Origin: an uncultured cyanobacterium
GTDB lineage: Bacteria > Cyanobacteriota > Cyanobacteriia > Cyanobacteriales > Nostocaceae
NCBI GenBank assembly: GCA_963706595.1
Contig: OY970166.1
Span: forward strand, 1,888,001-1,952,000
Length of the DNA stretch: 64,000 nucleotides
Reading direction: 5' to 3'
Positions 10,615 through 63,837 of the stretch are shown in pieces. Made by a program: the position numbers and the translations under genes. Each line of letters opens with the position of its first letter. Positions within the stretch are counted from its first letter, which is position 1. A model generated the notes under the pieces. It saw only the letters and a list, made by a program, of their open reading frames with translations, was not told where the DNA came from and did no database searches.

Positions 10615-10697
10615 AATGGCATGGGTATAGGTTGGTACTGAGATTAATTTCCCAGTCCCTAAGTCCCCATTCCCTGATTTATGTGGTGAAGAGAGTG

Positions 10698-44217: not shown

Positions 44218-44955
44218 CTAGACTGTGGTGGGATTGCAGACTACTTCTTTAATTAATCGTCCGTCTTCCATCTGAATGATCCGGTCTGCTATGTCTAATA
44301 TGCGGTTGTCGTGTGTCACCATTAAGATGGCGCAGTTCTGTTCTCTGGCTAGTTGTTGCATGAGGTTGACTACATCTCGTCCCGTTGTACTGTCTAAAGC
44401 GGCGGTGGGTTCATCTGCTAGGACTAATTTGGGATGACTGACTAAAGCCCGCGCGATCGCCACTCGTTGTTTTTGTCCTCCGGAAAGATCCGATGGATAG
44501 TAATCTACTCGATTCCCCAATTTTACAGCGTTGAGCATCGCTTCTGCTTTCCGGTGTGCTTCTTTTGAGGAGATGTTTGTATGTAACTCTAGTGACATTT
44601 GGACGTTTTGTCGGGCTGTTAAAAAATCTAATAAATTATGAGCTTGAAAAATATAGCCAATATGACGACGTACTTTGACTAATTCTTCATTACTAGCTCC
44701 ATAAAGTTCTTTTCCTAAAAACTTGAGACTTCCATCTTGAATCGAACGTAAACCTCCAATTAAGGTCAGTAAGGTGGTTTTTCCTGAACCTGAAGGTCCT
44801 GTCATAATGACAATTTCTCCAGGTTGAATGGCTAAATTAATATTAAACAAAATCTGGAGCCTTAAGGCATTTTTTCCCAAGTATTGGTTCAGGTTTTCTA
44901 TTTTGACAATATATTGTTTTTGAATCTGCCGAGAGCCAAATTTATCTGTGTCCAT
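44218..44955 (-). CDS. devA: DevA-family ABC exporter ATPase
   Basis: MTGPSGSGKTTLLTLIGGLRS, IGYIFQAHNLL, LSGGQKQRVAIARALV, HDNRILD. Confidence 0.88.
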   Translation of the reverse strand: MDTDKFGSRQIQKQYIVKIENLNQYLGKNALRLQILFNINLAIQPGEIVIMTGPSGSGKTTLLTLIGGLRSIQDGSLKFLGKELYGASNEELVKVRRHIGYIFQAHNLLDFLTARQNVQMSLELHTNISSKEAHRKAEAMLNAVKLGNRVDYYPSDLSGGQKQRVAIARALVSHPKLVLADEPTAALDSTTGRDVVNLMQQLAREQNCAILMVTHDNRILDIADRIIQMEDGRLIKEVVCNPTTV

Positions 44956-44990
44956 CTGTGTTCATCTTTTTCTATGGGCGGTTAATACTT

Positions 44991-45403
44991 TCGGGGATGA
45001 AACCTCACCCCAACCCTCTCCTTAGTAAGGAGAGGGAGCAGGAATATATTTTAATTAACTAAGTTAAAAAATATCGGCTGGGTCTACATTTCGCAGCTTA
45101 TTTGTAGATAAGAATCCAGATACTAAAATCGGGAATGAAACCTCACCCCAACCCTCTCCTTAGTAAGGAGAGAGAGCAGGAATATATTTTAATTAACTAA
45201 GTTAAAATATATCGGCTGGGTCTACATTTCGCAGCTTATTTGTAGATAGAAATCCAGATACTAAAATCGGGGATGAAACCTCACCCCAACCCTCTCCTTA
45301 GTAAGGAGAGGGAGCAGGAATATATTTTAATTAACTAAGTTAAAATATATCGGCTGGGTCTACATTTCGCAGCTTATTTGTAGATAGAAATCCAGATACT
45401 AAA
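44991..45403. repeat. Three 138-bp tandem copies of the devC 3' end plus a REP-like hairpin
   Basis: Units start at 44991, 45129 and 45267; each holds CCCTCTCCTTAGTAAGGAGAG(G/A)G and the codons for LVSGFLSTNKLRNVDPADIF*. Confidence 0.9.
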
Positions 45404-46512
45404 CACATAATCATGGCTAGGCAAAATACAAATATTGCTCTTTCTGAATTCATCATTACAGGTAATTGAGTCGCGTTCTTGGCAATATCATATAAACCTA
45501 AAGATATGGCAAAACCTGGAACATAACCTAAAGATGCTAAAAGTATAGCTTGTTGGAAAACTATACTCAAAAGATATTTGTTTTTAAATCCCATCGCTTT
45601 GAGTGTGGCATATTCAGCTAAGTGATTAGAAATGTTACTATAGAGAATTTGATAAACGACTATCACACCGACAACAAAACCCATAGTCACCATGAAGTTA
45701 AACACAAACCCAATGGGTGTTCTCAGAGTCCAATAGTCTTTTTCTAATTTGATAAAATCTTCACGAGCAATGAGTTTGACATCTTGAGGTAACTTGGTTG
45801 CTAAATTTGCCAAAACTTTTTCCGGGTTAGCACCGGGTTTGAGCTTAATTAAACCTATATCTATATCTTGTACAGAACGCTCTTGGAATATCCTCAGAAA
45901 AGTTGAGATGCTCACTATTAAATTTCCATCGACTCCGAAGGAAGGACCTAAGCTAAATAAGCCGCCAATTTTGACTTTGTAACCAACTAAGCCAATATAG
46001 CTAAATATTTCAGCCACTACAGTTTTTCCCTGCTCAAAATTTTCAGCCACGGGTCCAAATTCTGGGCGAGATGCACTGTCAAATAAAACCTGATCAGGAA
46101 GTCGGATTAAGTGGAGATTTTGCTGAACGTTTGGTAGATTTATAATCGATGTTATTGGATTAAATCCCAATACATATATAGGGTATTTAAAACCAGTTTG
46201 GGGATTCTTTAGTTTAGCAAATTGTACATATAAAGGACTAACTGATTCTACATCTTCAGAGCCTAAAATCTGGTATAAACGCTGACGAGGAAAGCTTTGG
46301 TTAGATGTCAGAGATTGATATTGAATACTAATTAAAAATAGGTTTCCATCGAGATTCTTATGCAACTGTGTAGCACTTGCATAGAGTGCATCCTGAAAAC
46401 CAATTTGCAGAAACATCAGCACGGATACAAAAGCAATTCCAGCTAAGGCGACAATAAAGCGAGCTTTTTGTTTAACTAATTGTAGCCAAGCTAGAGGTAT
46501 GTTGAGAATCAT
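45340..46512 (-). CDS. devC: DevC-family ABC exporter permease
   Basis: IPLAWLQL, GIAF..LMFLQIGF, SFGVDGNLI, YQILYS, EYATLKAMG, DPADIF. Confidence 0.9.
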   Translation of the reverse strand: MILNIPLAWLQLVKQKARFIVALAGIAFVSVLMFLQIGFQDALYASATQLHKNLDGNLFLISIQYQSLTSNQSFPRQRLYQILGSEDVESVSPLYVQFAKLKNPQTGFKYPIYVLGFNPITSIINLPNVQQNLHLIRLPDQVLFDSASRPEFGPVAENFEQGKTVVAEIFSYIGLVGYKVKIGGLFSLGPSFGVDGNLIVSISTFLRIFQERSVQDIDIGLIKLKPGANPEKVLANLATKLPQDVKLIAREDFIKLEKDYWTLRTPIGFVFNFMVTMGFVVGVIVVYQILYSNISNHLAEYATLKAMGFKNKYLLSIVFQQAILLASLGYVPGFAISLGLYDIAKNATQLPVMMNSERAIFVFCLAMIMCLVSGFLSTNKLRNVDPADIF

Positions 46513-46599
46513 CTAGCTAACCTCAAATGTAAGTAGGCGGGTGTGAATAAAGCCGTCGTCATTTGTCTTTTATCATCGGGAAGGGTTTGAGGCGTTTAT

Positions 46600-47799
46600 T
46601 TATATGTCAATGAGTACCTGCACTTGTAAGTCGGTTAGAGTCGTAACTGGTTGGTCTTTAGGTAGCTGATCGAGGCGGATTTTGACATCAACTACTTTGT
46701 TATCTGTATTCACTTGGGGATTGAGATCAAAAATATTTTGTCTACTAACTTGCAAACCAATATCTGTAACTTTTCCGCGTAATTCTCCGCTAAAAGCATT
46801 GCTAGTAATCATGGCTGACTGTCCTAGACGTACTTTTTGAATATCGGTTTCATAGACTTCTGCAACGACATACATTTGTTGTGTGCGTCCTAACTCTGCT
46901 ATCCCGGCGCTGGTGATAATTTCTCCGGGGCGAGTGTTAATTTTCAGCACTTGGCCGTCGATAGGCGATCGCACTGAACTTAAATCCCAGTCAGCTTGGG
47001 CTTGTCTGACAGAGGCGATCGCACTCTCAACGTCAGTTTGTGCGGCTTGAATATCAGTAGGACGAACTTCCGCAATACTCTGGAGTCTAGCTTCAGCTTC
47101 ATTTAACTGCTTTTGCAGAGTTTCTACAGTCCGCTTCAGAGCCGCTTGAGCTTCATTTAGCTGCTGTCTGACAGTATCAACTCGCAACTGTTTGCTCTCT
47201 GCATTGGAAGCGGAAACCGCACCTTCATCATATAACTGTCGATATCGTCGATTTTCACTCTCAGCATTCCGCAACTCAGCTTCTAAACGAGCAATTGTGG
47301 CTTCTTGCGCCGAAACTTCTCCTCTCAATTGAGCTTCTAAACGAGCAATTGTAGCTGCTTGTGCAGAGATGTCTCCGGCTTTTGCTCCCGCTTTTACTTG
47401 GTTAACACCCGCTTGAGCAACTAAAACCTGTTTTTGGGCTTTTTCTAAAGCTGCAAGTCGAGTATAATAATTGTCTAAAATTGCCACCACTTCCCCTTGA
47501 GTCACCCAGTCCCCTTGATTAACCAAGAGTTTTGCCACCCGCACCCCCGTTTGGGAATTAGCAGCAGATAACCGAATCACTTCGCCTTGAGGCTCTAAAC
47601 GTCCTAAAGCAGCAACAGCAGTGATAGCAGGGGAACTGCTGGGTGTAATTAAAGTTTCCACTGTCGAAGTTGAACGATTGCGGGAAAAACTGTAGAAGGA
47701 AATTGTCCCAGTCGCTACAGCTATAGAAATTGCCAAAATTATTGACAACTGACTTACAGGTTTTGTGAATAACTGTCTTTGTTTGGGTACCATAATCAC
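46600..47799 (-). CDS. devB: DevB-family membrane fusion protein
   Basis: VAALGRLEPQGEVIRLS, VRSPIDGQVLKINTRPGE, MYVVAEVYETDI. Confidence 0.9.
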   Translation of the reverse strand: MIMVPKQRQLFTKPVSQLSIILAISIAVATGTISFYSFSRNRSTSTVETLITPSSSPAITAVAALGRLEPQGEVIRLSAANSQTGVRVAKLLVNQGDWVTQGEVVAILDNYYTRLAALEKAQKQVLVAQAGVNQVKAGAKAGDISAQAATIARLEAQLRGEVSAQEATIARLEAELRNAESENRRYRQLYDEGAVSASNAESKQLRVDTVRQQLNEAQAALKRTVETLQKQLNEAEARLQSIAEVRPTDIQAAQTDVESAIASVRQAQADWDLSSVRSPIDGQVLKINTRPGEIITSAGIAELGRTQQMYVVAEVYETDIQKVRLGQSAMITSNAFSGELRGKVTDIGLQVSRQNIFDLNPQVNTDNKVVDVKIRLDQLPKDQPVTTLTDLQVQVLIDI

Positions 47800-47925
47800 T
47801 TTTTTCTCAGTTAAAGATATGGAAAGAAATCCGGTTTGATTTATGAAAAAATTAAATATTGTAGGGTGCGTAAGGATAAAATCCGTAACGCACCATGATT
47901 AACGACTTTGTGCCGTACTCTCCCG

Positions 47926-48019
47926 TAGACATCTGGTGAAAAAGAATGTAGAGACGTTTCATGGAACCTCTCTACAACGGTTCTGTGATCACGCATATTT
48001 TATTTTCACCTGATGTCTA
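47926..48019. repeat. TIR element carrying the GTAG palindrome
   Basis: TAGACATCTGGTGAAAA / TTTTCACCTGATGTCTA; degenerate palindrome at 47947-47976. Confidence 0.65.
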
Positions 48020-48027
48020 ATAACTAC

Positions 48028-48351
48028 TTACTTGTTGAGGACTACCTCTTTTTTATTTTTCATAATTGCTAAGTATTCACGACGTGTTCCGTCTATTCGG
48101 TAATGGTCACAGATTTGGCAGAGTTTCAAAATATCCAATCGGCTGAATAGTTTTTGATGCTCAATGTTGTTATCAGTCCTCCATCGCCAAAAAGTTGTCC
48201 GGTCAATACGGCGATTACTCTCAGGCCATCTGCGTCGGGATAAGAAATCTACTATTTCTTGTTCATAAAACGAGTAGCCTTTAGGCAATTTTAACAGTTC
48301 TTCTCTTAACTCAACTAGCGGAATGAGTGGATCTAACTCAGATAGTCTCAT
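48028..48351 (-). CDS. Small protein, possible MerR/Xis-like helix-turn-helix
   Basis: 107 aa; IDRTTFWRWR..FSRLDILKL pattern resembles MerR-type HTH/wing (inference). Confidence 0.5.
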   Translation of the reverse strand: MRLSELDPLIPLVELREELLKLPKGYSFYEQEIVDFLSRRRWPESNRRIDRTTFWRWRTDNNIEHQKLFSRLDILKLCQICDHYRIDGTRREYLAIMKNKKEVVLNK

Positions 48352-49304: not shown

Positions 49305-49586
49305 ATGAGATTACAGCGATTCATGCTCTCATTACCAAGTTTTGATAATCAGAGGCTAATGTTTCATGCAGCTCGCCAGACTCTTCGGAAAGCGGAGATG
49401 GCACGCCTGGCAGTGCATGAATGGCTCAATCAGCACGATTTTGAGCTAGAGGAGTGGAAAAATAAAACCGCTTCTGAGCTAGAAATTAGTATTAGTGAGC
49501 TAGAGCAAAAATTATTAGCTGCTAATCAGCAACAGGTAATGAAAAGAAAGAAAGGTGATCATGCTGATTCAGAAACTAATTATTGA
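49305..49586 (+). CDS. Small hypothetical protein, possible ribbon-helix-helix-like regulator
   Basis: RFMLSLP..AEMARLAVHEWL pattern; basic C-terminus. Confidence 0.4.
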   Translation: MRLQRFMLSLPSFDNQRLMFHAARQTLRKAEMARLAVHEWLNQHDFELEEWKNKTASELEISISELEQKLLAANQQQVMKRKKGDHADSETNY

Positions 49587-49633
49587 GGAAGTTATCGAGT
49601 CCGATGTATAACCATGTAACTAATCACAAGTGA

Positions 49634-49735
49634 TATAGCCATCCTATTTGATTTATGAATTTATCGAACCGCCAAGTCGCCAAGGTCGCCAAGTGAAGAA
49701 GTAAAGAGGTTCAGAAATAATTTAGGACTGCTATA
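49634..49735. mobile_element. Inverted copy of the MITE-like element at 640-741
   Basis: Near-identical reverse complement, 102 bp. Confidence 0.7.
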
Positions 49736-50048
49736 TGTCCAAATTATTGCGCGCCGTTCACATCTTTTTGATTTATATCGAGTTGCATATAAGTTGCAAT
49801 CGAGAATCACCCAGTCTAATATGATTGCAATTGGTAAATTAATAGGATGATGTGCATGAGGAACAGGTTCGACATCAAACTATCCCAGCTAAAGTTGTAA
49901 AATAAGTTATGTGGCAACTTTACATATATCCGTAATTTATTGGTCAAAAGTAACCTTGACCTATGAGATGATTGCCAATTATCGGATTAACAGAATAACC
50001 ACTCTCAACACATCTATATTTCACAAGTAAAATAGTTAAGTTGAAGTC

Positions 50049-53000
50049 ATGGCTGCTTCTAAAATTGAAGCTGAATTAGAGCAATTGCAAGATCAGATCA
50101 GCAATTGTGAAAAATCTCTGCTGAAGCTTATACAGGGAAAAAAAATTATGGTGACAAACGTACCGCTAAACACTAGCGAAATAAATAGACAACTGCGACA
50201 TACCCAGATTGCTATTGTTGGCATGGCTTCTATCTTTCCCCAAGCCAAAAACTTACAGGAATATTGGGAAAATATAATTCAGAAAGTTGATTGTATTACG
50301 GATGTTCCACCTTCTCGTTGGAACATAGATGATTATTACGACGCGAACCCCAGAACACCTGACAAAACTTACTGTAAACGGGGTGGATTTATCCCAGATG
50401 TCGATTTCAATCCGATGGAATTTGGTTTACCACCCAATATTTTAGAAGTTACAGATATTTCCCAGTTGTTAGGTTTGCTGGTTGCTAAATCTGCCATCGA
50501 AGATGCTGGCTATGGTGAATCTCGGCAATTTAATCGCGAACGCACTGGTGTAGTGTTGGGTGTTGCTGTCGGTAGACAATTGGCTTTACCACTCAGTTCC
50601 AGAATGCAGTATCCCGTTTGGGAAAAAGTTCTTAAAAGCAGTGGCTTATCTGATGAAGATACCCAAAGCATAGTTGAGAAAATCAAAAGCGCTTATGTGC
50701 AGTGGAATGAGAACGCCTTCCCAGGGATGTTAGCTAATGTCATTACTGGACGAATTGCTAACCGCCTAGATTTAGGGGGAATGAATTGTGTAGTCGATGC
50801 TGCTTGTGCCAGTTCTTTGGGGGCGCTGAAAATCGCTATTAGTGAACTAGTTGAACATCGCTCTGACATGATGCTGACTGGCGGAGTTGACACAGATAAC
50901 ACCATCATGGCTTATATGTGTTTCAGTAAAACCCCTGCTGTTTCCCCCAGTGAGAATGTGAAACCATTCGATGCTGGTTCTGATGGGATGATGCTGGGCG
51001 AAGGTGTGGGAATGTTGGTACTGAAGCGCTTGGAAGATGCCGAGCGAGACAATGACCGGATCTATGCAGTAATTAAAGGTATTGGCAGTTCTAGCGATGG
51101 TCGCTATAAAAGCATTTATGCACCTCGTCCAGAAGGTCAAATTAAAGCTATACATCGCGCTTATGAAGATGCCGACTGTGCGCCTGCAAGTGTGGGTTTA
51201 ATTGAAGCCCACGGTACTGGAACTCTCGCTGGAGATCCCACAGAATTCACATCTATTAAAGCAGTTTTTGGGGAAAATAACCCCAAACAACAATATATTG
51301 CGCTAGGAAGTGTCAAATCACAGATTGGACATACAAAAGCGGCGGCGGGTGCGGCGAGTTTAATTAAAACTGCTTTGGCTCTGCATCATAAAGTATTGCC
51401 ACCCACAATTAACATTACTCAACCTCACCCTAAACTCAATATTGAAAGTTCTCCGTTTTATTTAAACACGGAAACCAGACCTTGGATTGCTACCGATGAC
51501 CAACCCAGAAGGGCTGGAGTCAGTGCTTTTGGCTTTGGTGGGACTAACTATCATGTTGTTTTGGAAGAATACAAACACGAACACAACCAGCCCTATCGCC
51601 TACATAATACTTTCCAGTCGGTATTGATATCAGCTAAAACACCCGCAGAGTTGTTATCGCGCTGTGAAGAAATCCAAAATCAACTAAAATCTGATGCGGG
51701 AGAACGGCATTATGCAGAACTAATTGCGGCTGCTAAAGCTTTAGAAATACCAATCGCAGATGCTAGAGTCGGGTTTGTGGCTAATTCTCTAACTCAAGCT
51801 GGTGAGTTGTTACAAAAATCTATTGACTTGCTGAAAAACAAGTTAGAAGCGGAATCTTGGGAACATCCCCAAGGGATTTATTACCGTAAAACTGGTATCA
51901 GTAAACAGCAGAAGGTTGTAGCGCTGTTTTCTGGTCAAGGCTCGCAATACTTAGAAATGGGTCGGGAATTGGTAATTAACTTTCCCTGCTTACGCCAGAC
52001 TTATGCAGAGATGGACAGGCTTTTATGCCAAGATGGTTTACAGCCTGTTTCGGAAGTTGTATTTCCGAATCCTGTGTTTAATCCAGAATCAAAAGCCGCC
52101 CAGATGTCAGCTTTGCAATTGACAGAATATGCACAGCCAGCAATTGGGGCTTTTAGTGCGGGTCTGTATAAGATTCTCCAACAAGCGGGCTTTAAAGCAG
52201 ATATGGTCGCCGGACATAGTTTCGGAGAGCTTACGGCTTTATGGGTTGCGGGAGTTTTGAGTGAGGAGGATTATTACTTCTTGGTGAAGGCTAGGGGTCA
52301 AGCTATGGCTACACCTCAAGACTCCAAGTTGGATAATGGAACTATGTTGGCGGTGAAAGGAGATGTGAGTCAGGTTAAAGCACTGATTCAAGATTTCCCT
52401 CTGGTTAATATTGCTAATTTGAATTCCCATCAACAAATGGTGCTGGCGGGGACAAAGGCGGAAATTGCTAAAGTTGAAGAGTTGCTGACGGCGAAAGGGT
52501 TCCATACGGTATTGCTGAAAGTTTCCGCAGCTTTTCATACCTCTTTGGTGGCTTATGCTCTGAAACCTTTTGCTCAGGCTATTGAAAGGGTGAGTTTGCA
52601 GCCGCCACAAATACCGGTGTATACCAATTTTACTGGGACTCCTTACCCCAATCAGCCAAAATTTATTCAGAATATTCTTCAAGAACATCTGGGAAATCAG
52701 GTGTTGTTTGAAGAGGAAATTGAAAACATTTATGCTGAAGGCGGTTATTGCTTTGTGGAATTTGGTCCACGCAATACTCTGACTAATTTAGTTAAGGAGA
52801 TTCTGGGCGCGAGATCCCATATAGCTGTAGCGTTAAATACTCATCCTCAAAAAGATAGCGATCGCACTCTCCGAGAAGCTGTTGTACAATTACGTGTCGC
52901 TGGTTTACCTCTGCTCAACCTAGACCCTTATCAACAGTCTCGCCCCATTCCCGCAGAACCTCAAACTAAAGTCTTGAATGTGCGCTTAAATAGCACCAAT

Positions 53001-56000
53001 TATGTCTCGGACAAGACGAAGCAGTTATTTGAAAAGGCTCTACAAAATGGGCATCAAGCAAAATTGCCCGTTAGCAATGGTAATCACTCCACAATATCAA
53101 ACCTTTTCACTGCCGAAACCTTGCAGGAAGAAGCTATACCTACAAAGAACATAGCAGTCAATGGTCAAGCTAAATCACCTACAGAAAAAGTAGCAGTCAA
53201 TGGTCGAACTAAATCACCTACAGAAAAAGTAGCAGTCAATGGTCGAACTAAATCTATGAAAAACGGGAAATCAGACAAGCAGGATATCAAGTATATACCA
53301 ACCAATCCCGACGCATCTGTGGATTACCAGAGAGCCATAGATAACTTAGAATACACCCTGATTGAATTCAATCGCCATCAACGTCAGATTTTGCAGGTTC
53401 ATGAACAGTCTTTGAAGCATCAGACAGAATATACCAAAACCTTCTTCGGGCTGATGCAACAACAGCAAATCTTGTGGGGAAATGGTAGATTCATTCAGCA
53501 ACAACCGCAAACCCAGCAACTTGCTATCTCCAGTTCCGAGCGTAGCATCATGCGGTTCCACCAACATCAAGCTGACAGCCTCCGCATTCATCAGCAGTAC
53601 CTGAACCATCAGCAAGAATATACTAATAACTTCTTCCAATTAGTTCAGCAACATCAACTGCCAACTAGCGATTATACCACAGAACACAGTTTGATTCCGT
53701 CGTTCCAATATCAAGATAGTTCTACTATTCCTACATACCCAGAATATCAGCCGATTCCAGTAAAAACCCCATCGGCTGTGGCGAATAAACCTGAGCCAGT
53801 TTCCACTAATGGTAATGGTAACGGCACACATCATCAAGCAACAACAGTTCTAGATATCATTGCGCCCCAGGAGAATCTAACTGCAACTACAACCATAGTA
53901 GCTGCACCACCAATAGAGCCAGTAGAGATTGATGCGGCTACCCTCAGTCAAACCCTGCTGACTATTGTTAGTGATAAGACAGGCTACCCCAGCGAAATGT
54001 TAGAGATGTCAATGGACATTGAAGCTGATTTGGGGATTGATTCCATCAAACGGGTGGAGATTTTAGGAGCATTATTAGAAATATATCCCGATTTACCTCA
54101 GCCGAATCCAGAGGAACTAGCACAGCTACGCACCCTCGCTGAAATAGCTGAGTATATCAGAACTTTAGCGCCACAAAACTCAGTCACGTCTGCAACCATC
54201 AATGAGGTATTAGAAACAGCAGAAAAAGTTGAAGAAGAAGAACAAGTTGAAGAAACAGTAATATCTCCCTCACCTTCTGCAATTCCAGATAATCTCAGCC
54301 AAATACTGCTCACCATCGTCAGTGATAAAACAGGCTACCCCAGCGAAATGTTAGAGATGTCGATGGATATTGAAGCTGATTTGGGGATTGATTCCATCAA
54401 ACGGGTGGAGATTTTAGGAGCATTATTAGAGCTATACCCCGATTTACCCCAGCCAAATCCTGAAGAAGTAGCTCCACTGCGTACTCTGGAAGAAATTGTT
54501 GATTATATAGAACAAACGGCGGAAATGTTCGCAAAAGGAATGCTATCCACACAGGAGGAAGCAGGGGTGCAGGGGGAAGAAGCAGGAGGGGTGCAGGGTG
54601 CAGGGAGCAGGGGGGAAGGAGTAGAAGAAGCAGGGGTGCAGGGTGCAGGGTGCAGGGGGGAAGGAGTCGAAGAAGCAGGGGTGCAGGGTGCAGGGTGCAG
54701 GGGGGAAGGAGTCGAAGAAGCAGGGGTGCAGGGTGCAGGGTGCAGGGGGGAAGGAGTAGGGAGTAGTTATTCTTCTGAGAGCCACTCGCTAATTCGCCGC
54801 AGCCCTGTTAAACTGAAATTTCTGCCTGAACCTGATGTTTTAGATTTTACTTTACCTGCACAGCATATTGCTTTGCTCACTGATGACGGTTCCCTGACTA
54901 CTACAAAGTTAGCTGAGGCTTTAAGCAAGCGGGGCTGGAAAACCGTTGTTTTAAGTTTCCCTCAAACTCTGATTGGTAAACAATCGCCTTTACCTGACAG
55001 TATAAATCGGGTAGTGCTATCAGATTTGAGCGAGGAACATTTGCAACAACAGTTAGGTGCGATCGCCTCTGAATATGGTAAAGTAGCTGCATTTATTCAT
55101 CTCAATCCCCCAAATCTGCAAAATAGCAGTAATCATATCTGCTATCTGGAAACAGAAAAATCTATTCTGCGTCACGTCTTTCTCACCGCTAAATACCTCA
55201 AAGAATCTTTGAATCAAGCAGCCGAGTTAGGACGCAGTTGTTTCTTGACTGTGGCGCGTCTGGATGGCGAATTCGGACTAGGACAAAAAACTAACTTTGG
55301 CGCAATTAGTAGCGGTTTATTCGGACTCACCAAAACTGTCAACCAGGAATGGGAACCTGTATTTTGCCGAGCCTTAGATATCAGTCCTGATTTAGATGCT
55401 CAAACTTCAGTAGAGCATATCCTGGCTGAACTTCACGACCATAATCGCTTGGTTGTGGAAGTGGGATATACTGCACAAGGACGCAAAACCTTAATCTGCG
55501 AACCAAAATCAGATGATATTTTTGCCAACTCAATACCTCATCCCCAATCTCAAGTATTTCTCGTCAGTGGTGGTGCAAAGGGGATAACGGCTAAATGTGT
55601 GATTGAATTAGCACAGCGTTATCAATGCAGATTTATTCTCCTGGGGCGTTCTGCGGCTGAACCGGAACCTGTATGGGCGGAAGGTTATGTTGGCGAAGCG
55701 GAATTGAAAAAGCGAATTATGGAGGATTTCATCGCTAAAGGAGATAAACCTACACCTGTAATGGTGCAGAAAAAGTTTCAAACTATTGCATCCAGACGGG
55801 AAATAGCCGCTACCTTAGAAGCCATTGCACAGGCGGGTGGACAAGCCGAATACTTGAGTGTGGATGTCACCGATGCCATGATGCTTTCTGAAAAAGTTGC
55901 TAGTGCTGTGGAGCGTTTGGGGCCAGTTACAGGTATTATTCATGCAGCCGGGAATCTTGCTGATAAACGGATTGAGAAGAAAACACTCCAAGATTTTGAA

Positions 56001-57239
56001 ACGGTTTATGCTGCTAAGGTTAAAGGTTTAGAAAACCTGCTACGGTGTATACCAGCTAGTGAATTGCAATATTTAGTTCTGTTTTCCTCGGTGGTGGGAT
56101 TTTATGGCAATGTGGGACAATCTGATTATGCGATCGCTAATGAAATTCTCAACAAATCAGCCCATCTGTTCAAACGCAACCATCCGAATTGTCATGTAGT
56201 CGCCATTAACTGGGGTCCTTGGGATAGTGGAATGGTATCTCCAGAATTAAAAAAAGCTTTTGCTGAACGCAATATCGAGACAATTCCCCTAGAAACTGGC
56301 GCACAGATGTTAGTTTCGGAACTGGAACAAAAAAATCAGCCAACTACACAAGTAGTAATTGGTAGTCCCCTGGTTTACACCCCAGGAGCATTAAACCCAG
56401 AGTTAAAAAGCTTTCGCATCCAGAGGAAATTAACATTAGCCGCAAACCCATTTTTACATGACCATGTAATTGCAGGTAAACCAGTTCTTCCCGCCACTTG
56501 TGCCTTTTCCTGGATTGCTAATAGCTGTGAACAACTCTATCCCGGTTACAAATTCTTTAGTTGCCAAAACTTCAAGGTTTTGAAGGGAATTATCTTTGAT
56601 GGTCAGCAAGCAAATCAATACACGTTAGATTTAGTAGAAATTTCTAAATCTGATGATCATGAAATCGAATTTCAGGCTAAAGTATGGAGTAAGAATGCCG
56701 ATAAAATCCGTTATAATTTCAGTGCTAATATCAAATTGCGAAAACAAATTCCAGTAGCTCCCACTTATGACTTATTTAACCCGGAGCGCACAAACCCCGA
56801 TATCAGCACATCATTCTATCAAAACGGGGCATCAAGTTTATTTCATGGTTCAGCTTTCCAGGGCGTAGAAAGTGTTTTAAATATTAGTCCTGAGACCATA
56901 ACTATAGATTGCCTAGTGCCTCAAGTAGAAGCAACAAAACAAGGACAATTTCTAGTTCAAACATTCAACCCTTACATTGTTGATGTTCAGATTCATGCTC
57001 TGTGGATTTGGTCTCAATATTATCACCAAGTAGGTTGTTTACCTTCAGAAATCAATAACTTTGAGCAGTTTGCAGAACTCCCCTTTGGTGAAAAACTGTA
57101 CATCTCTTGCGAAGTTAAATCAAGGACAAACTCGGCAATGGTTGTTAATGTGATCACACACGATGCTCAAGGAAAAATATATACCCGAATGATGGACGCT
57201 AGAGGCATTGTTTTACCCCAACAATTAGAAAAAATTTAA
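50049..57239 (+). CDS. Iterative type I PKS, HglE/PfaA-like: KS-AT-ACP-ACP-KR-DH
   Basis: KS DAACASS/EAHGTGT/GHTKAAAG; AT GHSFGE, AAFH; two LGIDSIKRVEI ACPs; KR VSGGAKGIT..YAIANE; DH FLHDHVIAGKPVLP; start could be 50148. Confidence 0.92.
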   Translation: MAASKIEAELEQLQDQISNCEKSLLKLIQGKKIMVTNVPLNTSEINRQLRHTQIAIVGMASIFPQAKNLQEYWENIIQKVDCITDVPPSRWNIDDYYDANPRTPDKTYCKRGGFIPDVDFNPMEFGLPPNILEVTDISQLLGLLVAKSAIEDAGYGESRQFNRERTGVVLGVAVGRQLALPLSSRMQYPVWEKVLKSSGLSDEDTQSIVEKIKSAYVQWNENAFPGMLANVITGRIANRLDLGGMNCVVDAACASSLGALKIAISELVEHRSDMMLTGGVDTDNTIMAYMCFSKTPAVSPSENVKPFDAGSDGMMLGEGVGMLVLKRLEDAERDNDRIYAVIKGIGSSSDGRYKSIYAPRPEGQIKAIHRAYEDADCAPASVGLIEAHGTGTLAGDPTEFTSIKAVFGENNPKQQYIALGSVKSQIGHTKAAAGAASLIKTALALHHKVLPPTINITQPHPKLNIESSPFYLNTETRPWIATDDQPRRAGVSAFGFGGTNYHVVLEEYKHEHNQPYRLHNTFQSVLISAKTPAELLSRCEEIQNQLKSDAGERHYAELIAAAKALEIPIADARVGFVANSLTQAGELLQKSIDLLKNKLEAESWEHPQGIYYRKTGISKQQKVVALFSGQGSQYLEMGRELVINFPCLRQTYAEMDRLLCQDGLQPVSEVVFPNPVFNPESKAAQMSALQLTEYAQPAIGAFSAGLYKILQQAGFKADMVAGHSFGELTALWVAGVLSEEDYYFLVKARGQAMATPQDSKLDNGTMLAVKGDVSQVKALIQDFPLVNIANLNSHQQMVLAGTKAEIAKVEELLTAKGFHTVLLKVSAAFHTSLVAYALKPFAQAIERVSLQPPQIPVYTNFTGTPYPNQPKFIQNILQEHLGNQVLFEEEIENIYAEGGYCFVEFGPRNTLTNLVKEILGARSHIAVALNTHPQKDSDRTLREAVVQLRVAGLPLLNLDPYQQSRPIPAEPQTKVLNVRLNSTNYVSDKTKQLFEKALQNGHQAKLPVSNGNHSTISNLFTAETLQEEAIPTKNIAVNGQAKSPTEKVAVNGRTKSPTEKVAVNGRTKSMKNGKSDKQDIKYIPTNPDASVDYQRAIDNLEYTLIEFNRHQRQILQVHEQSLKHQTEYTKTFFGLMQQQQILWGNGRFIQQQPQTQQLAISSSERSIMRFHQHQADSLRIHQQYLNHQQEYTNNFFQLVQQHQLPTSDYTTEHSLIPSFQYQDSSTIPTYPEYQPIPVKTPSAVANKPEPVSTNGNGNGTHHQATTVLDIIAPQENLTATTTIVAAPPIEPVEIDAATLSQTLLTIVSDKTGYPSEMLEMSMDIEADLGIDSIKRVEILGALLEIYPDLPQPNPEELAQLRTLAEIAEYIRTLAPQNSVTSATINEVLETAEKVEEEEQVEETVISPSPSAIPDNLSQILLTIVSDKTGYPSEMLEMSMDIEADLGIDSIKRVEILGALLELYPDLPQPNPEEVAPLRTLEEIVDYIEQTAEMFAKGMLSTQEEAGVQGEEAGGVQGAGSRGEGVEEAGVQGAGCRGEGVEEAGVQGAGCRGEGVEEAGVQGAGCRGEGVGSSYSSESHSLIRRSPVKLKFLPEPDVLDFTLPAQHIALLTDDGSLTTTKLAEALSKRGWKTVVLSFPQTLIGKQSPLPDSINRVVLSDLSEEHLQQQLGAIASEYGKVAAFIHLNPPNLQNSSNHICYLETEKSILRHVFLTAKYLKESLNQAAELGRSCFLTVARLDGEFGLGQKTNFGAISSGLFGLTKTVNQEWEPVFCRALDISPDLDAQTSVEHILAELHDHNRLVVEVGYTAQGRKTLICEPKSDDIFANSIPHPQSQVFLVSGGAKGITAKCVIELAQRYQCRFILLGRSAAEPEPVWAEGYVGEAELKKRIMEDFIAKGDKPTPVMVQKKFQTIASRREIAATLEAIAQAGGQAEYLSVDVTDAMMLSEKVASAVERLGPVTGIIHAAGNLADKRIEKKTLQDFETVYAAKVKGLENLLRCIPASELQYLVLFSSVVGFYGNVGQSDYAIANEILNKSAHLFKRNHPNCHVVAINWGPWDSGMVSPELKKAFAERNIETIPLETGAQMLVSELEQKNQPTTQVVIGSPLVYTPGALNPELKSFRIQRKLTLAANPFLHDHVIAGKPVLPATCAFSWIANSCEQLYPGYKFFSCQNFKVLKGIIFDGQQANQYTLDLVEISKSDDHEIEFQAKVWSKNADKIRYNFSANIKLRKQIPVAPTYDLFNPERTNPDISTSFYQNGASSLFHGSAFQGVESVLNISPETITIDCLVPQVEATKQGQFLVQTFNPYIVDVQIHALWIWSQYYHQVGCLPSEINNFEQFAELPFGEKLYISCEVKSRTNSAMVVNVITHDAQGKIYTRMMDARGIVLPQQLEKI
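54555..54760 (+). repeat. In-frame 45-bp repeats built from GGGTGCA heptamers within the PKS linker
   Basis: GAAGGA recurs at 54615, 54660, 54705 and 54750; encodes GVEEAGVQGAGCRGE repeats. Confidence 0.85.
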
Positions 57240-57416
57240 TCCGAAGTTTCTATGAAGACTAAGGCATTAAGACTCAGCCGATAGCTGCTATAGCCAGAAA
57301 ATGCGCCGAAATATATGACAACCACAAGCAGAAATTCGGCGCACGTCTTCATCATCAAAGGGGATTAAAAGACATTTACACATAATGTTTTACATTACAG
57401 TTTTAGGAGTTGGGCG

Positions 57417-60400
57417 ATGAAAAAAATAACACAAAATCAAATACCTAAAATAGCGATTGTGGGGATGGACTGCTATTTAGGTGGTGGCTGCCAAGGCTTA
57501 GATACTTTTGAACAGAGCATTTATGAAGGAACACAACATTTTATTCCCCTGCCTGAACAGCGATGGCAAGGAATAGAAAAGCCAGAAGAATTACTGAGTA
57601 AATATGGTTTTGACAGTGGTGAAGCACCATTAGGAGCATACATTCAAGATTGCCAAATTTTCCCAGAAGCAGGGGATAAATTTCATCCTCAAGAACTTTT
57701 GATGCTTCAGGTCGCTGATAATGCTTTAAAAGATGCGGGTATTCGTCCAGGGTCAAAGGTTGCAGTCGTAATCGTTAGTGCCAAAGAACTGGCGCTTTCT
57801 CAAAATACACAACTTGCATCCTCAGACATCGAGAATCGGCTAGCTAATGATATTTCTCAACAGTGGAAATTTACTGGAGCCGCATTTACATTAACGGCTG
57901 CACAAAGCTCTGTTTTTAAAGCCTTAGAAATGGCACAAAAGCTACTTGTTAATCAAGAAGTAGATGCTGTTTTAGTGGGTGCAGTAGAGCTAGCTGGGGA
58001 TAGTGCGAGTGTTTTACTCCGCAATCAAACAACCGCCATCAACACAGGCGTGAATACTCTCAGTTACGATGAAAATGCTAATGGCTGGATGGTAGGTGAA
58101 GGTGCAGCGGCCATTGTTTTAAAGCGCCATGAAACCGCCAAACAAGATCAGAACCGCATCTATGCAGTCATTGACGCGCTCAGTCTTGTAGAAAATGCCA
58201 AATCTCAAATCCACTCAATTCCTACTGCCATAGATGCAGAAACGATAACGCAAGCTTGTCAACAAGCTTTTCAGTTGGCAGATATCAAACCCACAGACAT
58301 CGGCTATTTAGAAGTTATTGGCAGTGGGATTCCATCACAAGATGAGTCGGAAATTCGGGGTTTGCTGCAAGCTTATGGGACTTCTGAAGCAAATCTTAGT
58401 TGTGCGCTGGGTAGTGCCAAAGCAAATGTCGGTCATACTTATGCGGTATCGGGGTTAGTTAGTATAGTCAAAACAGCACTTTGTCTATATCGCAGCTATA
58501 TTCCCGTGGTTCCCCAGTGGTCTGGCCCAAAATGCCAGAGATTTGGCAAAATAGCCCCTTTTATGTGGCGGCGGAATCCAAACCCTGGTTTTCAGATACC
58601 AGAATAGCTGCTGTTAACGGTATGGAGGTAGATGGGAGTTATGCACATTTAATTTTGTCAGAGGAAGTAGGTCAGCCAACGCATAGTAACAGGTATTTAG
58701 AACAAATTCCTGATTATTTGTTTGCGATCGCAGCTGATGATCAAGCCAGTTTATTAGAGCAGATCCAGATTCTACAACACACTATCACTGATTGCCCCTC
58801 TCTTAAAGCTGCTGCCAGTGAAACTTTTACAACTTTTCAAAAGCATCCAAATCCAACTTACACACTGTCTATTCTCGGACGCAATCAAGAGGAATTAAAC
58901 CGGGAAATTCAGCGCTCTTTCCAAGGTGTTAATATTGCCTTTGAAACAGGTAAAGACTGGCAAACTCCTGTAGGCAGCTATTTCACAACCAAACCACTAG
59001 GCAAAGATAATGATATCGCGTTTGTTTACTCTGGTTCTTTCAATGCTTATGTTGGCATCGCCCGGTATCTCTTCCGCTTCTTCCCCCAAATTTATGATGA
59101 CTTGCTCAATAGAGGCATTTACAACCGGGCTGCTAGTATAGAGAAATTGTTTTATCCTAGAAGCTTAAGAAAAATATCAAAAAGGCAATTAGAAACCATT
59201 GAACAAAAATGGATGGATGATCCAGTAACATTACTTGAATTTGAAATATGCTTCACTGGATTCATGACGGCAATTCTCAAAGATTGTTTTCAAATTAAAC
59301 CCAAAAGTGCATTTGGATATAGTCTGGGCGAAATTAGCATGATGTTTGCTCAGGGTGTTTGGAATAACTTTAACCAAAGTAGTCAAAACTTGTCTTCATC
59401 ATCTTTGTTTAAAAGCAGGCTGGCTGGCCCAAAGATGCCGTCCGCGAGTATTGGAAATTGCCTCAAGAAGATAATATTTCAGACGAAAATCTTTGGAATA
59501 ACTATGTGCTTTTATGTCCAGCATCCCGTGTTAGAGAGGCCATTAAATCAGAAAAACGCGTTTATTTATCTCTCATAAATACACCAGATGAAGTTATAAT
59601 TGCTGGTGAACCACAAGCCTGTGAGAGAGTCATTGAAAACCTCCAATGTGTTGCCTTTCCCACTGCTCTCAAGCACGTAGTTCATTGTCAGCCAATGTGT
59701 TCTGAGTATGATGAACTCGCCAAAATCAACACTTCACCTGTTGAAAAAGTCGAAAATACTGTTTTCTATTCCGCCGCAGAATACAAACCTATTCCTCTTG
59801 ATAGTAATTCTATTGGTAACAACATTGCCCAAACTCTATGTCAAGAGCTTGATTTCCCTCGGCTAGTTAACAGTGTCTACAATGATGGTGCTAAAATCTT
59901 TATTGAAGTAGGAGTTGGCGGTAACTGTTCACGATGGATTAGTAAAACACTCCAGGACAAAGAACACGTCGCAGTTTCTCTGAATAGAAGAGGCATAGAT
60001 GAGCATATTTCTATTATCAGAGTATTAGCAAAGCTGTTGAGTCATCGAGTTGAAATGGATTTATCGCCACTGTATGCTCTATCGCAAGAAAGTTCCAGCC
60101 AAAATCAATTAGGAATGGAAACTATCTCGTTGGGTAGTAATAAAGTTGAAGACATATTTCTCAGCGAGAATAACCAGACAAAATTCCCAGAAGCATTTTC
60201 TAGCTCATCAGATAATTCTTCTGCTCAAAACTATGAATTATTGCAAGTTAGTGAATTTGCCAAACCCACATATTCTGGGGATAAAAATTTGATGGTAATT
60301 GAGCCAAAGAGTCTTATGAATAACTTAATCACCGATACTTTACCAGAAAGTTTAAGTTTAGAACAAAGTCATAAAGCTTCTAGTGTTTTGGTGTGCGATC

Positions 60401-60693
60401 GCGCTATTTTACCGGAAGAAGAATTACTAGATGATCCTGTTTTGCTCACAGAAGCAGAAGATCATAAAAGCTTATTACCTGATGATTATGTAGCTGATAG
60501 CTTTGTTACCAAAAATCCAGAACCTAATTTACGTAGTCCTCACTATCAAAAGCTGTTTCATAACGCTTCCCAAATGACCGAAACTCACTCTATTCTACTA
60601 GAGTTTAGACAACAATCACTACATCAAATCAGCGCCACAATACATCAACAACTAGAGTTGTACCAAAAATTGTTTGAAGAATCAAGTCATTGA
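57417..60693 (+). CDS. HglC/PfaB-like chain-length-factor-acyltransferase protein, split by two -1 frameshifts (about 58530 and 59431), probably sequencing errors
   Basis: KS-like fold lacking the catalytic Cys (TAAQSSV), GEGAAAIVLK, GSAKANVGH; AT GYSLGE, FIEVG; adding one A after GGCCCAAA at both sites gives one ORF. Confidence 0.85.
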
Positions 60694-60862
60694 ATTTAGT
60701 ACAGCATTTCATCCATTCGTAACGAGTCAATTTGCTAAACCTCTGCGTAACTCCTCACGCCTTGGCGGTTAAAAAATTCTGATTATAGGCAATCGTGTAT
60801 TCAGTATATCTGCACTGTGATTTATCCCCAGATTACAGAAAAATTAAAAAGCTAAAAACCTG

Positions 60863-62524
60863 ATGCTAACAAATAATCTCCTCAACCATAAACGCGGTAA
60901 TTCACTTTTAAAACTTTCCCATTCCTTTGTCAGTCCTAATCAAGTTTGGCAAGGTGCTTTAAATACTATATCTTTTGATGGCAATGGCATCAAAGCCAAA
61001 CTACTAAACCTAGCTAAACCTTGTTATATTATCAGAGTTGAAGATAAAATTGGTGTAACTAATGAAGGAGAATCGCTGCATTCCCAGAATGGAAAAATAG
61101 GACAAGAACTGTTAATGTCTGTTCCAGCCATGCAGATAAAACAGTTAGGTGATCCAAATTTTCTAGATTTCCATAATGTGAAATATGCCTATGTTACTGG
61201 TGCAATGGCTCACGGTATTGCTTCTGAAGAATTAGTAATTGCTCTGGGCAAGGAGAAAATTTTAAGTTCATTTGGTGCTGGAGGTTTATCTCCAGCCCGT
61301 GTGGAAGCAGCCATCAATCGTATTCAGCAAGCCCTACCCCAAGGCCCTTACGCTTTTAACTTACTCCACAGTCCCAGTGACCCGGCTGTGGAACGGGGTG
61401 TGATTGATTTGTATCTCAAATATCAAGTCAGAACAATAGAAGCATCCGCTTTCTTAGATTTGAGTGAAAACATCGTTTACTACCGGGTTGCCGGACTAAG
61501 TTTGAATGCAGCCAATGAAATCGAAATCAAAAATAAAGTCATTGCCAAAATTTCTCGGCGAGAAGTGGCGACCAAATTTTTAGAACCAGCACCTTACAAA
61601 ATTCTCAAAAAATTAGTCCAGCAAGGTCTTATCAGTGAATTACAGGCAACTTTAGCCGCCAAAATTCCCATGGCTGATGATATTACCGTAGAAGCAGATT
61701 CTGGTGGTCACACAGATAATCGTCCTTTGGTTTGTCTGTTACCATCCATTTTGGAATTAAGAGATCAAATTCAGGGCCAATATGGTTATGAAAAACCAGT
61801 CAGAATCGGAGTAGCCGGAGGAATTGCCACTCCACAATCAGCCTTAGCTGCCTTTATGATGGGCGCTGCTTATGTTGTGACTGGTTCAATTAACCAATCC
61901 TGTATTGAAGCTGGAACTTCGGAATATACCAAACAATTACTAGCTCAGGCAGAAATGGCTGATGTGATGATGGCTCCAGCCGCAGATATGTTTGAAATGG
62001 GGGTAAAACTGCAAGTTCTTAAAAGAGGAACTCTCTTTCCTCTGAGAGCGCAAAAACTATTTGACTTATACAAAAACTATGATTCAATTGAAGATATACC
62101 TCTTGCCGAAAGAGAAAAACTAGAGAAACAAGTTTTCAAAACTAATCTAGATGCGATTTGGCAGGAAACAGTTAATTACTTATCTCAACGTAATCCCGAT
62201 AAACTGCACAAAGCAGCCAAGAATCCTAAGCTGAAAATGGCTTTAATTTTTCGCTGGTATTTAGGATTATCTTCTCGTTGGTCTAACTCTGGTGAAAAAG
62301 GGCGGGAAATTGATTATCAAATCTGGTGTGGTCCGGCAATGGGTAGCTTCAATAACTGGACAAAAGGTTCTTATTTGGCAGAGATAAATAATCGTCGAGT
62401 CGTTGATATTGCTAATCAAATTATGACTGGCACGGTATTTTTATACCGAATGCAAGTTTTAAAAATCCAGGGATTAGAAATGCCAACTTACTACAGCACA
62501 TATCACCCAGTTCGTTTTAACTAA
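60863..62524 (+). CDS. pfaD: PfaD/HglA-family enoyl reductase
   Basis: GAMAHGIAS, EASAFL, AKISRREVA, EADSGGHTDNRPL, APAADMFEMGVKLQVLKRG, YQIWCGPAMG. Confidence 0.93.
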   Translation: MLTNNLLNHKRGNSLLKLSHSFVSPNQVWQGALNTISFDGNGIKAKLLNLAKPCYIIRVEDKIGVTNEGESLHSQNGKIGQELLMSVPAMQIKQLGDPNFLDFHNVKYAYVTGAMAHGIASEELVIALGKEKILSSFGAGGLSPARVEAAINRIQQALPQGPYAFNLLHSPSDPAVERGVIDLYLKYQVRTIEASAFLDLSENIVYYRVAGLSLNAANEIEIKNKVIAKISRREVATKFLEPAPYKILKKLVQQGLISELQATLAAKIPMADDITVEADSGGHTDNRPLVCLLPSILELRDQIQGQYGYEKPVRIGVAGGIATPQSALAAFMMGAAYVVTGSINQSCIEAGTSEYTKQLLAQAEMADVMMAPAADMFEMGVKLQVLKRGTLFPLRAQKLFDLYKNYDSIEDIPLAEREKLEKQVFKTNLDAIWQETVNYLSQRNPDKLHKAAKNPKLKMALIFRWYLGLSSRWSNSGEKGREIDYQIWCGPAMGSFNNWTKGSYLAEINNRRVVDIANQIMTGTVFLYRMQVLKIQGLEMPTYYSTYHPVRFN

Positions 62525-62538
62525 AGGAGCAAAATCAC

Positions 62539-63837
62539 ATGAATAATGTCGAAATTAATAACCGCATTACCAAAATTCAAAATAGACTTTTTGAACAGGC
62601 ACATACTCAGTCATTAGAATTAAAACCTGTCGCTATTGCACTGAGTAAGCAGGGAATTATAGCAGGGAAACTTTACTGTAATCCGGGCATGATTCCCTTA
62701 CCCATGCCATTTTGTGAGTATTTACGTTCTCTAAATACCAGTCAAAAGTCGATTTTATCCGCAGCATTCTTTGCCAACTTTTATAAGTATGTTGCTAATA
62801 GCGAATCTCAAGCTATTCCATCAAACATGAGTGTGTCCGAAAAACTTTTTGCCCCATACTCAGACGAATATATGATTCTTCACCAGGAAACAAATGAAGA
62901 ATTGGATCATATTTGGTCTTTCCGGACTATACATACTATGGTTTGTCGAGAAATAGGAATTCAAAACTCGTTTGAGGAACCTGGCTTTTTTTATGGTACT
63001 TTCCGCCCTGTACCTGAATCCGATTGGCAAAACTTAGATACTAGTTTTAGTTTTGATGTAGACCTCAGCGAAACTTTATCTTATCTGATGAAAGGTAAAA
63101 GTTTTCTGAATCAGCTAGTAGAAAAAATGGAGTTACAAAGTAGGAATTGGCTATATAGAAATTTACGCTTTATCGTTGGAGATGCCGTGAGGATGCTACC
63201 CTCTGAAATAGTGCAAGAAAATGGATTGGGTAGCTTATGGTTACTGTACCGATATATGGCTAATGTCGAGTTAAAACAAGCCGAAAGCTATTTATTCGAC
63301 GACCCAGAAAATTTTGACTATGACCCATTAGCTTTTGAGTTAAATCATGGTCACATCACAGATGAAGCTCGTCATTACACAACATCTTTTGATTTAGGGT
63401 TTGAATTATATCAAAAAGCTCCTCCAGAGGCTCAATATTTCATTCGGTATGCCATGCAAAAAATTGTTGAAGACTACATTAATGCTTCTTTTACCACTTA
63501 CCTGGAGAAATTAGACCTCAATCAGCAGGGAGTCATATTAACTGAAACTAGACTGGGGCTTAATTCATTAACTATGTCTTTACAACATCCTGAATTCATT
63601 AATAAGCAAGTAGATATGAATAAACTCATTAATTCTTGGAGAAATATGAACTTAAGTTGGCGTAAAATCATTGGTTCTTTAGAACAAAAGAGTTGGCGCT
63701 ACAGAGCGCAGCAGATAGCCCGCATCGTTCAAGCACTGGAACTCGAATTAAATCAAGAGCTTTTAGGTAACAAATATCACCGCTATCAGGATGCTTTAGA
63801 ATCTAAAGAAATTAAAAAACTTATTGAAGTAGCCTAA
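62539..63837 (+). CDS. Ferritin-like dimetal-carboxylate enzyme, CylC/AurF-like
   Basis: YVANSE, EELDH (ExxH) and HITDEARH (HxxxExxH); AGGAG RBS 14 bp after the pfaD stop region. Confidence 0.68.
   Translation: MNNVEINNRITKIQNRLFEQAHTQSLELKPVAIALSKQGIIAGKLYCNPGMIPLPMPFCEYLRSLNTSQKSILSAAFFANFYKYVANSESQAIPSNMSVSEKLFAPYSDEYMILHQETNEELDHIWSFRTIHTMVCREIGIQNSFEEPGFFYGTFRPVPESDWQNLDTSFSFDVDLSETLSYLMKGKSFLNQLVEKMELQSRNWLYRNLRFIVGDAVRMLPSEIVQENGLGSLWLLYRYMANVELKQAESYLFDDPENFDYDPLAFELNHGHITDEARHYTTSFDLGFELYQKAPPEAQYFIRYAMQKIVEDYINASFTTYLEKLDLNQQGVILTETRLGLNSLTMSLQHPEFINKQVDMNKLINSWRNMNLSWRKIIGSLEQKSWRYRAQQIARIVQALELELNQELLGNKYHRYQDALESKEIKKLIEVA

Follow-up and report, generated by a model that had tools for sequence, protein, structure and literature searches.

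The closest described counterparts of the locus reported here are the hgl-like islands of cyanobacteria, defined as hgdCB plus hglE-F-G, hglC and hglA in five open reading frames (ORFs) (Perez Gallego et al. 2025, PMC11804610; this and the other papers are cited for the portions available). These islands are widespread, older than heterocysts and seemingly unrelated to heterocyst glycolipids (HGs); an additional island was found in 259 of 494 island-bearing genomes, and the available portions report no product for the hgl-like islands. In the nostochloroside cluster (ngl, pks3) of Nostoc punctiforme ATCC 29133, NglG, modelled on TubC and RhuA templates, was proposed as the chain terminator that makes a C21 1,2-diol out of a C20 chain, which is a hypothesis only, and several hundred NglG homologues occur in polyketide synthase (PKS) clusters without known termination domains (Glasser et al. 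2024, PMC10849952). Diiron halogenases of the CylC/NocO family are defined by QExxH and HxxDExxH motifs, and AurF has an Asp at the Q128 position (PMC12101540). Here, we analysed a 64,000-nucleotide stretch of an uncultured Nostocaceae cyanobacterium (assembly GCA_963706595.1, contig OY970166.1; hereafter the window), which corresponds to C1:1888001-1952000 of a single-contig 5.57-Mb genome. We consider, with a probability of about 0.55, that the window carries a secondary-lipid island of the hgl-like type, which terminates its chains in the manner of NglG and has an optional cassette for diiron tailoring.

The canonical heterocyst-glycolipid island of this genome (hglE to hglB, hetN, hetI and devB/devC) is located at C1:~4.257-4.285 Mb. 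Since it sits at another place in the genome, the locus in the window is a second island, as an earlier reading of the DNA letters alone (hereafter the sequence-only reading) had proposed, and the concern raised there that this might be the genome's only hglE locus does not hold. Homologues in the two islands match at 56-62% (PKS), 48-55% (chain-length factor plus acyltransferase, CLF-AT), 72% (enoyl reductase) and 54-61% (DevB/DevC). In contrast to the canonical order (hglE-F-G-D-C-A-B, hetN, hetI), the studied cluster is without hglD, hglB, hetN and a glycosyltransferase gene. Its gene content matches the published hgl-like type, with hgdB, hgdC, a fused hglE-F-G, hglC (in three frames in this assembly) and hglA in five ORFs, without hglD and hglB, and as a second island in a heterocystous genome that also has a larger canonical one (PMC11804610). 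The locus is therefore non-canonical as that reading held, but its type is already in print. The published type was defined via homologues of HG genes, and the available portions of that paper do not mention the acyl carrier protein (ACP), the PapA5-like genes, the NglG-like tail or the diiron-ferredoxin cassette found here.

Protein families were assigned with Pfam and NCBIfam profiles, and devA, devC and devB each score above the NCBIfam cut-off. Coordinates without a prefix are window positions; the region beyond the window was read on G000:C1:1950001-1970000 (plus strand), labelled L001, and other labels of the form L0xx or L1xx denote comparison loci from relatives' genomes and metagenomes. 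The genes of the cluster are as follows (aa, amino acids; KS, ketosynthase; AT, acyltransferase; KR, ketoreductase; DH, dehydratase).

44218..44955, minus strand: devA/hgdA-like ABC ATPase (TIGR02982, 373 bits; cut-off 296)
45340..46512, minus strand: devC/hgdC-like permease (TIGR01185, 481 bits; cut-off 290)
46600..47799, minus strand: devB/hgdB-like membrane fusion protein (TIGR02971, 347 bits; cut-off 129)
48028..48351, minus strand: conserved 107-aa ORF (L049 and L055 have an ORF of 84-85% identity in the corresponding position)
49305..49586, plus strand: conserved 93-aa ORF upstream of the PKS (83-91% identical in L060, L071, L076 and L077)
50049..57239, plus strand: HglE-F-G fusion, a PfaA-like iterative PKS of 2396 aa with the order KS-AT-ACP-ACP-KR-DH (TIGR02813, 2236 bits)
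57417..60693, plus strand: HglC-like chain-length factor plus PfaB-like acyltransferase (CLF-AT), split by two single-base frameshifts
60863..62524, plus strand: HglA/PfaD enoyl reductase (TIGR02814, 666 bits; cut-off 449)
62539..63837, plus strand: ferritin-like dimetal-carboxylate enzyme of 432 aa, CylC sister clade (EExDH / HxxDEARH), an optional cassette gene
63998..64000, plus strand: start codon of a 2Fe-2S ferredoxin gene, with GAGGAG ahead of the ATG
L001 1998-2285, plus strand: 2Fe-2S ferredoxin
L001 2415-3803, plus strand: PapA5-like acyltransferase 1
L001 3872-5206, plus strand: PapA5-like acyltransferase 2
L001 5327-5632, plus strand: free ACP with a short docking motif at its C-terminus
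L001 5671-7542, plus strand: NglG-like protein of 623 aa; beta-hairpin docking domain at the N-terminus, Rossmann-like domain in the middle, then a class II aldolase fold

The genes named in the sequence-only reading (DevB-C-A, PKS, PfaD and the 432-aa ferritin-like protein) all lie where it had placed them; it had missed the split of CLF-AT and the two small conserved ORFs between devB and the PKS. Its expectation that the cluster continues from the ATG at 63998 is confirmed, this ATG opening the ferredoxin gene. Where it had looked to the downstream genes for a release reductase or a glycosyltransferase, we found instead the ferredoxin, two PapA5-like, ACP and NglG-like genes, and neither ORFs nor profile scans of the downstream stretch revealed an hglB-type reductase, a thioesterase, a short-chain dehydrogenase/reductase (SDR) or a glycosyltransferase. 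A convergent Mn-catalase gene comes next after the NglG-like gene; in Nostoc relatives, the island is often followed by genes for a glycosyltransferase and ABC proteins. The PKS motifs are intact (DAACASS, EAHGTGT, GHTK, GHSFG, AAFH and two copies of GIDSIKRVE), and HHxxxD is present in all 57 PapA5-like homologues scanned. FabA-type dehydratases, which make cis double bonds, distinguish the polyunsaturated fatty acid (Pfa) synthases; Pfam profiles detect none in the studied PKS, its sole DH matches being PS-DH/PKS_DH_N, so that it differs from a Pfa synthase on this point.

The ACP and NglG-like release module past the window is most likely the step most apt to define the product. The N-terminal docking domain of the NglG-like protein belongs to the TubC-type family PF18563. 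In the structural model (predicted local distance difference test score, pLDDT, 82), residues 1-56 resemble the docking domain of AerJ (8aqq; Z 9.5, root-mean-square deviation (rmsd) 1.4, 56 aligned), and residues 328-623 adopt a class II aldolase fold (RhuA, 1gt7; Z 13.7, rmsd 3.7, 191 aligned). Sugar-phosphate aldolases are the best fold neighbours, which also include the decarboxylase 2z7b, two oxygenases (NovR and pyruvic oxime dioxygenase) and TqaM. By sequence, a PDB profile search matched the docking domain alone and did not see the aldolase fold, an hhalign comparison with the class II aldolase of the same genome failed (probability 0.2), and an Atlas search gave no usable match. The motifs HFHG and EPDHG are present in 84 of 84 NglG-like copies in the loci scanned, and His521, His523 and His581, which we take to be metal ligands from the aldolase motifs, are invariant. 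The protein matches at 59% the gene at the NglG position of L095, a locus with the ngl gene order, this comparison being with that gene and not with NglG (B2J018) itself; the last KS of L095 has the His-to-Gln change described for NglF. We sampled 250 genomes of the family, 400 of the order and 250 others across the phylum, and NglG-like relatives occur in 109 of the family genomes (some in other cluster types) and 35 of the order genomes.

In 75 of 81 cases, the ACP that lies nearest upstream of the NglG-like gene has an acidic-hydrophobic docking motif at its end, versus 0 of 14 other ACP-ending ORFs, with a motif pattern written after the partners had been seen and with kin and repeated genomes among the 81 ACPs. 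Docking of short linear motifs (SLiMs) on beta-hairpin domains has been described (PMC9113145), and the C-terminal ACP motif together with the hairpin domain fits this mode. L019 encodes a 1284-aa protein (8807-12661, minus strand) that joins an AMP-binding ligase to an ACP and the NglG core and has neither a docking domain nor a KS domain, which fits an NglG core acting on plain acyl-ACP. Four loci (L096, L097, L099 and L101) have the ACP and NglG-like genes between hglA and hetN/hetI, the normal hglB slot; these loci otherwise look canonical, with an hglD-sized KS and hetN- and hetI-like genes. The ACP and the NglG-like protein thus probably stand in for the HglB reductase. The lack of hglB and a thioesterase in the cluster, with the canonical island elsewhere in the genome, was also counted for NglG-type release. 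Like ngl, the studied cluster combines a docking and aldolase-fold terminator with a dimetal enzyme in a long-chain lipid context without thioesterase or reductase release. In contrast, ngl starts from palmitate via FAAL-ACP (FAAL, fatty acyl-AMP ligase) and has modular PKSs, a canonical CylC homologue, SDRs, a glycosyltransferase and a CylK homologue (PMC10849952), whereas the studied island would build its chain de novo and has a free ACP, PapA5-like enzymes and no CylK-like gene. A further set of ACP-CylC-PKS clusters with an NglG-like gene and an SDR at the end (L021-L024, L026, L028, L092, L094 and L100) are probable nostochloroside analogues of other chain lengths.

From the observed gene content, folds, motifs and co-occurrence, we infer a pathway in which the chemistry, docking, esterification, export and tailoring are proposals. 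By analogy with HglE/Pfa synthases, the PKS, CLF-AT and PfaD would use malonyl-CoA to make an acyl chain that is very long and mostly saturated, and this chain may be handed to the free ACP. The C-terminal motif of this ACP would then dock on the hairpin domain of the NglG-like protein, and the metal-binding aldolase-fold domain would take the role of the HglB reductase and release the chain, as proposed for NglG. By the same analogy, release would most likely add one carbon from a sugar-phosphate-type donor, giving an odd-chain 1-hydroxy-2-ketone, or a 1,2-diol if a reduction follows. The PapA5-like enzymes may esterify free hydroxyls, and DevBCA, judged from its family, would export the lipid. 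In a minority of islands, including the studied one, a ferredoxin-fed diiron enzyme would functionalise an unactivated C-H bond of the chain. The sequence-only reading had also envisaged a chain made de novo, modified and exported; the domains and DevBCA genes for this are real, and of the two modifications it had named, chlorination is about as likely as oxidation.

The dimetal ORF begins exactly 14 bp after the pfaD stop codon. Close relatives of the gene lie in the island context in 14 of 14 genome loci, 10 of 10 family matches (one truncated) and 5 of 5 close metagenome loci, and the ferredoxin gene follows in 14/14, 10/10 and 12/12 loci. Co-conservation with the PKS, on which the sequence-only reading had staked its proposal, thus holds for the 14 loci with close relatives, but the gene is optional: it is present in none of 26 PfaD islands chosen via their NglG-like gene and in 10 of the 250 family genomes versus 109 for the NglG-like gene. 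It is missing from 3 of 6 same-genus genomes with an NglG-like gene, and the same-genus islands L059-L061 lost it with or without the ferredoxin. The clade was found in 0 of the 250 other phylum-wide genomes and gave no strong match in the 400 order genomes, which are samples and not proof of absence. Seven distant metagenome loci (29-49%; three apparently one locus, two shorter than 2 kb) have the ferredoxin in 7/7 and no PKS in view. One such pair (30%; L090 9995-11355) lies on a contig of 66% guanine-cytosine content beside AMP-binding, P450, carbamoyltransferase and MBOAT genes, and in L072, a 3' fragment of the dimetal gene and the ferredoxin gene are duplicated ~44 kb away from the intact island. 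The position of the dimetal gene varies (L068 and L070); in the dimetal tree, but not in the NglG-like tree, L065/L066 cluster with the lineage of the window. The varying position and this tree conflict suggest that the dimetal-ferredoxin pair is a mobile, optional cassette. Co-transcription of the dimetal gene, also assumed earlier, finds a parallel in a ~92%-identical relative, where one RNA contig bridges pfaD and the dimetal gene in 2 of 2 runs, which does not prove a single transcript. The closest named relative by dimetal protein is a Nodularia genome (94%).

The AlphaFold model of the dimetal enzyme (pLDDT 92) has CmlI and AurF as its best Foldseek matches (E 4.8e-4 to 2.5e-2), the precomputed family is PF28091, named CylC-like, and the top three Atlas clusters are CylC-like. 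A PDB sequence search returned no significant match, and Pfam AurF matched at E 0.046 only. As in CylC/NocO halogenases (PF28091; PMC12101540, PMC8406957), the enzyme combines an AurF-type fold and HxxDExxH with an ACP-containing lipid cluster; His272, Asp275, Glu276 and His279 are invariant, Glu249 is conserved, and eight of nine CylC site residues map onto the enzyme, two Glu outside the motifs being placed by inference. The clade differs from these halogenases in having EExDH in place of QExxH (Glu120 in 49/49, versus QExxH in 10/10 CylC-type controls), a fixed ferredoxin partner and distant members without a PKS in view. The enzyme is 15-18% identical to CylC-type proteins and belongs to a separate clade (branch of 3.3 substitutions per site, bootstrap 100). 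Because of EExxH, the long branch and this low identity, we did not file it as a CylC halogenase; the earlier label CylC/AurF-like is apt for fold, PF28091 and HxxDExxH, but not for the QExxH of characterised halogenases. Among published CylC clusters, three of the 'nitronate monooxygenase-containing' kind, which lack a known product (Eusebio et al. 2021, PMC8406957), are listed with genes for a PKS, a ferredoxin, an ACP and a glycosyltransferase, a likeness by gene lists only, and PfaD scores as a nitronate monooxygenase (PF03060); they have been reported from LEGE strains only, whereas the dimetal cassette also occurs in N. punctiforme and A. cylindrica.

The dimetal enzyme may work like a CylC halogenase. 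Chlorination on the one hand and hydroxylation or desaturation on the other are each just short of an even prospect, and any other chemistry is improbable. Against chlorination stand the Glu at the position of the halogenase Gln and the low identity to CylC-type proteins; the Q128A mutation abolishes NocO activity, and Gln versus carboxylate at this one second-sphere position has been proposed to help set halogenation versus oxygenation (PMC12101540). Counted for halogenation is a related Pfa cluster (L110/L078), in which two QExxH CylC genes lie between pfaD and ACP-NglG. Besides its NglG-like gene, the L110 and L078 cluster also encodes methyltransferases, a protein with beta-propeller repeats and products resembling type III PKSs. 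We rejected ferredoxin adjacency as a sign of an oxygenase, since QExxH CylC genes in the Rieske-type loci L105, L107 and L108 also have a downstream ferredoxin and NocO assays use ferredoxin (PMC12101540). Complex prediction for the dimetal enzyme and the free ACP (score 0.01) is uninformative in either direction.

Several points weigh against carbon-adding, NglG-type release. The aldolase fold is invisible by sequence and is shared by decarboxylases and oxygenases; the likeness to NglG rests on the fold and the L095 gene, not on the NglG sequence (B2J018), and the terminator role of NglG is itself a hypothesis. The composition of the ACP set and the late definition of its motif, given above, count here too, and a cluster without an SDR or glycosyltransferase leaves the final head group uncertain. 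The fold neighbours allow for the reverse chemistry, in which the NglG-like domain would remove a carbon by decarboxylating a beta-keto acyl chain in a metal-dependent (oxidative) reaction, to give an odd-chain ketone or hydroxyketone. Beta-keto intermediates do occur on an iterative synthase, and 2 of 13 modular loci keep the His of the last KS, which is thus intact (five were not parsed). Nevertheless, we consider decarboxylation unlikely, because the last KS is of the His-to-Gln transfer type in 6 of the 13, the L019 fusion has no KS domain, and sugar-phosphate aldolases are the best fold matches. Still less probable is a reading in which the island makes even-chain HG analogues (C24-type 1,3-diols or wax esters), the PfaB-like AT or the PapA5-like enzymes release them and the NglG-like protein has another role. 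PapA5-type enzymes are able to offload chains onto alcohols, and 7 of 66 island loci carry both hglB and an NglG-like gene, so that replacement of HglB is not strict. C24 1,3-diol analogues have been tied to related non-canonical islands (PMC11804610). On the other hand, PapA5-like genes are missing from 18 of the 66 loci with PfaD and an NglG-like gene, and the docking pair links the free ACP to the NglG-like protein, favouring NglG-type release.

The locus could instead be decaying, with a truly broken CLF-AT and an inactive pathway in this strain. CLF-AT is spread over three frames (57417-58607, 58481-59578 and 59458-60693), which, if genuine, would mean a broken copy, and the cassette is lost or truncated in the relatives L059, L060, L061 and L071. 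We regard decay as very unlikely. Both breaks are single-base gaps (58526 and 59429) in the same GGCC context, as seen against L005, which is 94.7% identical in DNA and encodes CLF-AT as one 1102-aa ORF; CLF-AT is one ORF in other relatives as well. The extra base is present in L005 at both breaks and, at 58526, also in RNA contigs X17 and X19 of another relative. Other devB/devC and PKS genes in the assembly look split (G000:C1:4301278-4303969 and 5275893-5279862), which is consistent with indel errors. The dN/dS of the dimetal gene (0.14-0.21 against 5 of 5 relatives tested) indicates purifying selection on it. The CLF-AT frameshifts, as read from these alignments, are probably sequencing errors.

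An orthologous cluster is expressed in N. punctiforme ATCC 29133: Npun_F1299-F1297 (devA, C, B), R1294/R1293 (PKS), R1292 (PfaD), R1291, R1290 (ferredoxin), R1289 (ACP), R1288 (condensation-like) and R1287 (TubC_N) all have reads (Table 8, PMC10849952). Npun_R1291 and R1287 are 69% and 73% identical to the dimetal and NglG-like proteins of the studied cluster. The same strain makes a halide-dependent lipid, C31H59O2Cl, that persists after ngl deletion (PMC10849952). As C30 plus one carbon with two oxygens, it would fit the island, but extra unsaturation is needed, and the formula is equally compatible with a wax ester or a diketone. On halide depletion, the AurF-annotated gene Npun_R4693 and the ferredoxin gene R4692 of a Rieske-type locus change by log2 -0.94 and -1.03, whereas R1291 changes by -0.02 (PMC10849952). 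The Rieske-type locus Npun_R4686-R4698 shifts its expression largely as a block (Table 8, PMC10849952). We therefore downgraded the island as the source of C31H59O2Cl, an origin that now appears doubtful, and consider the Rieske-type locus the stronger candidate. Literature searches gave nothing relevant for the Npun_R129x/R1287 locus tags and no match for C31H59O2Cl outside the original paper, with subscription journals mostly outside their coverage.

Several features of the window stand apart from these subjects. The 107-aa ORF has a 73% paralogue at C1:1661860, and Pfam and NCBIfam searches gave no match for it. An in-frame, G-rich 45-nt tandem repeat of ~4-5 copies lies in the PKS linker past the second ACP (54550-54773). 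A 19-nt direct repeat (89%; 47829-47847 and 49641-49659) in the divergent devB/PKS intergenic region is possibly the site of a shared regulator. Promoter and terminator scans gave chance levels only (21 vs 25.9 and 8 vs 5.7).

Both the hgl-like island type and NglG have already been published, each separately. In searches with the same coverage, we found no paper that connects hgl-like islands with release of the NglG type and nothing relevant on aldolase-type chain release; no relevant follow-up on NglG or nostochloroside was among the matches listed, and 'hgl-like island' returned the defining paper alone (PMC11804610). hgl-like islands with an NglG-like terminator point to a type of polyketide chain release that has yet to be characterised, and the ACP-docked terminator predicts a lipid that has an odd-numbered chain, carries oxygen at C1 and C2 and is possibly esterified. 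A broader generalisation is rather unlikely, namely that many hgl-like islands make a hitherto undescribed class of exported odd-chain very-long-chain lipids via carbon-adding aldolase-fold release and that EExxH marks a second diiron halogenase family giving chlorolipids. The EExxH clade is a natural test of the Gln-versus-carboxylate proposal (PMC12101540), and the L019 fusion is a minimal one-protein system for NglG chemistry. N. punctiforme ATCC 29133 is a genetically tractable model carrying the orthologous cluster; since it expresses this cluster and nine queries found no second CylC-like match in the window's genome, both organisms are direct test systems.

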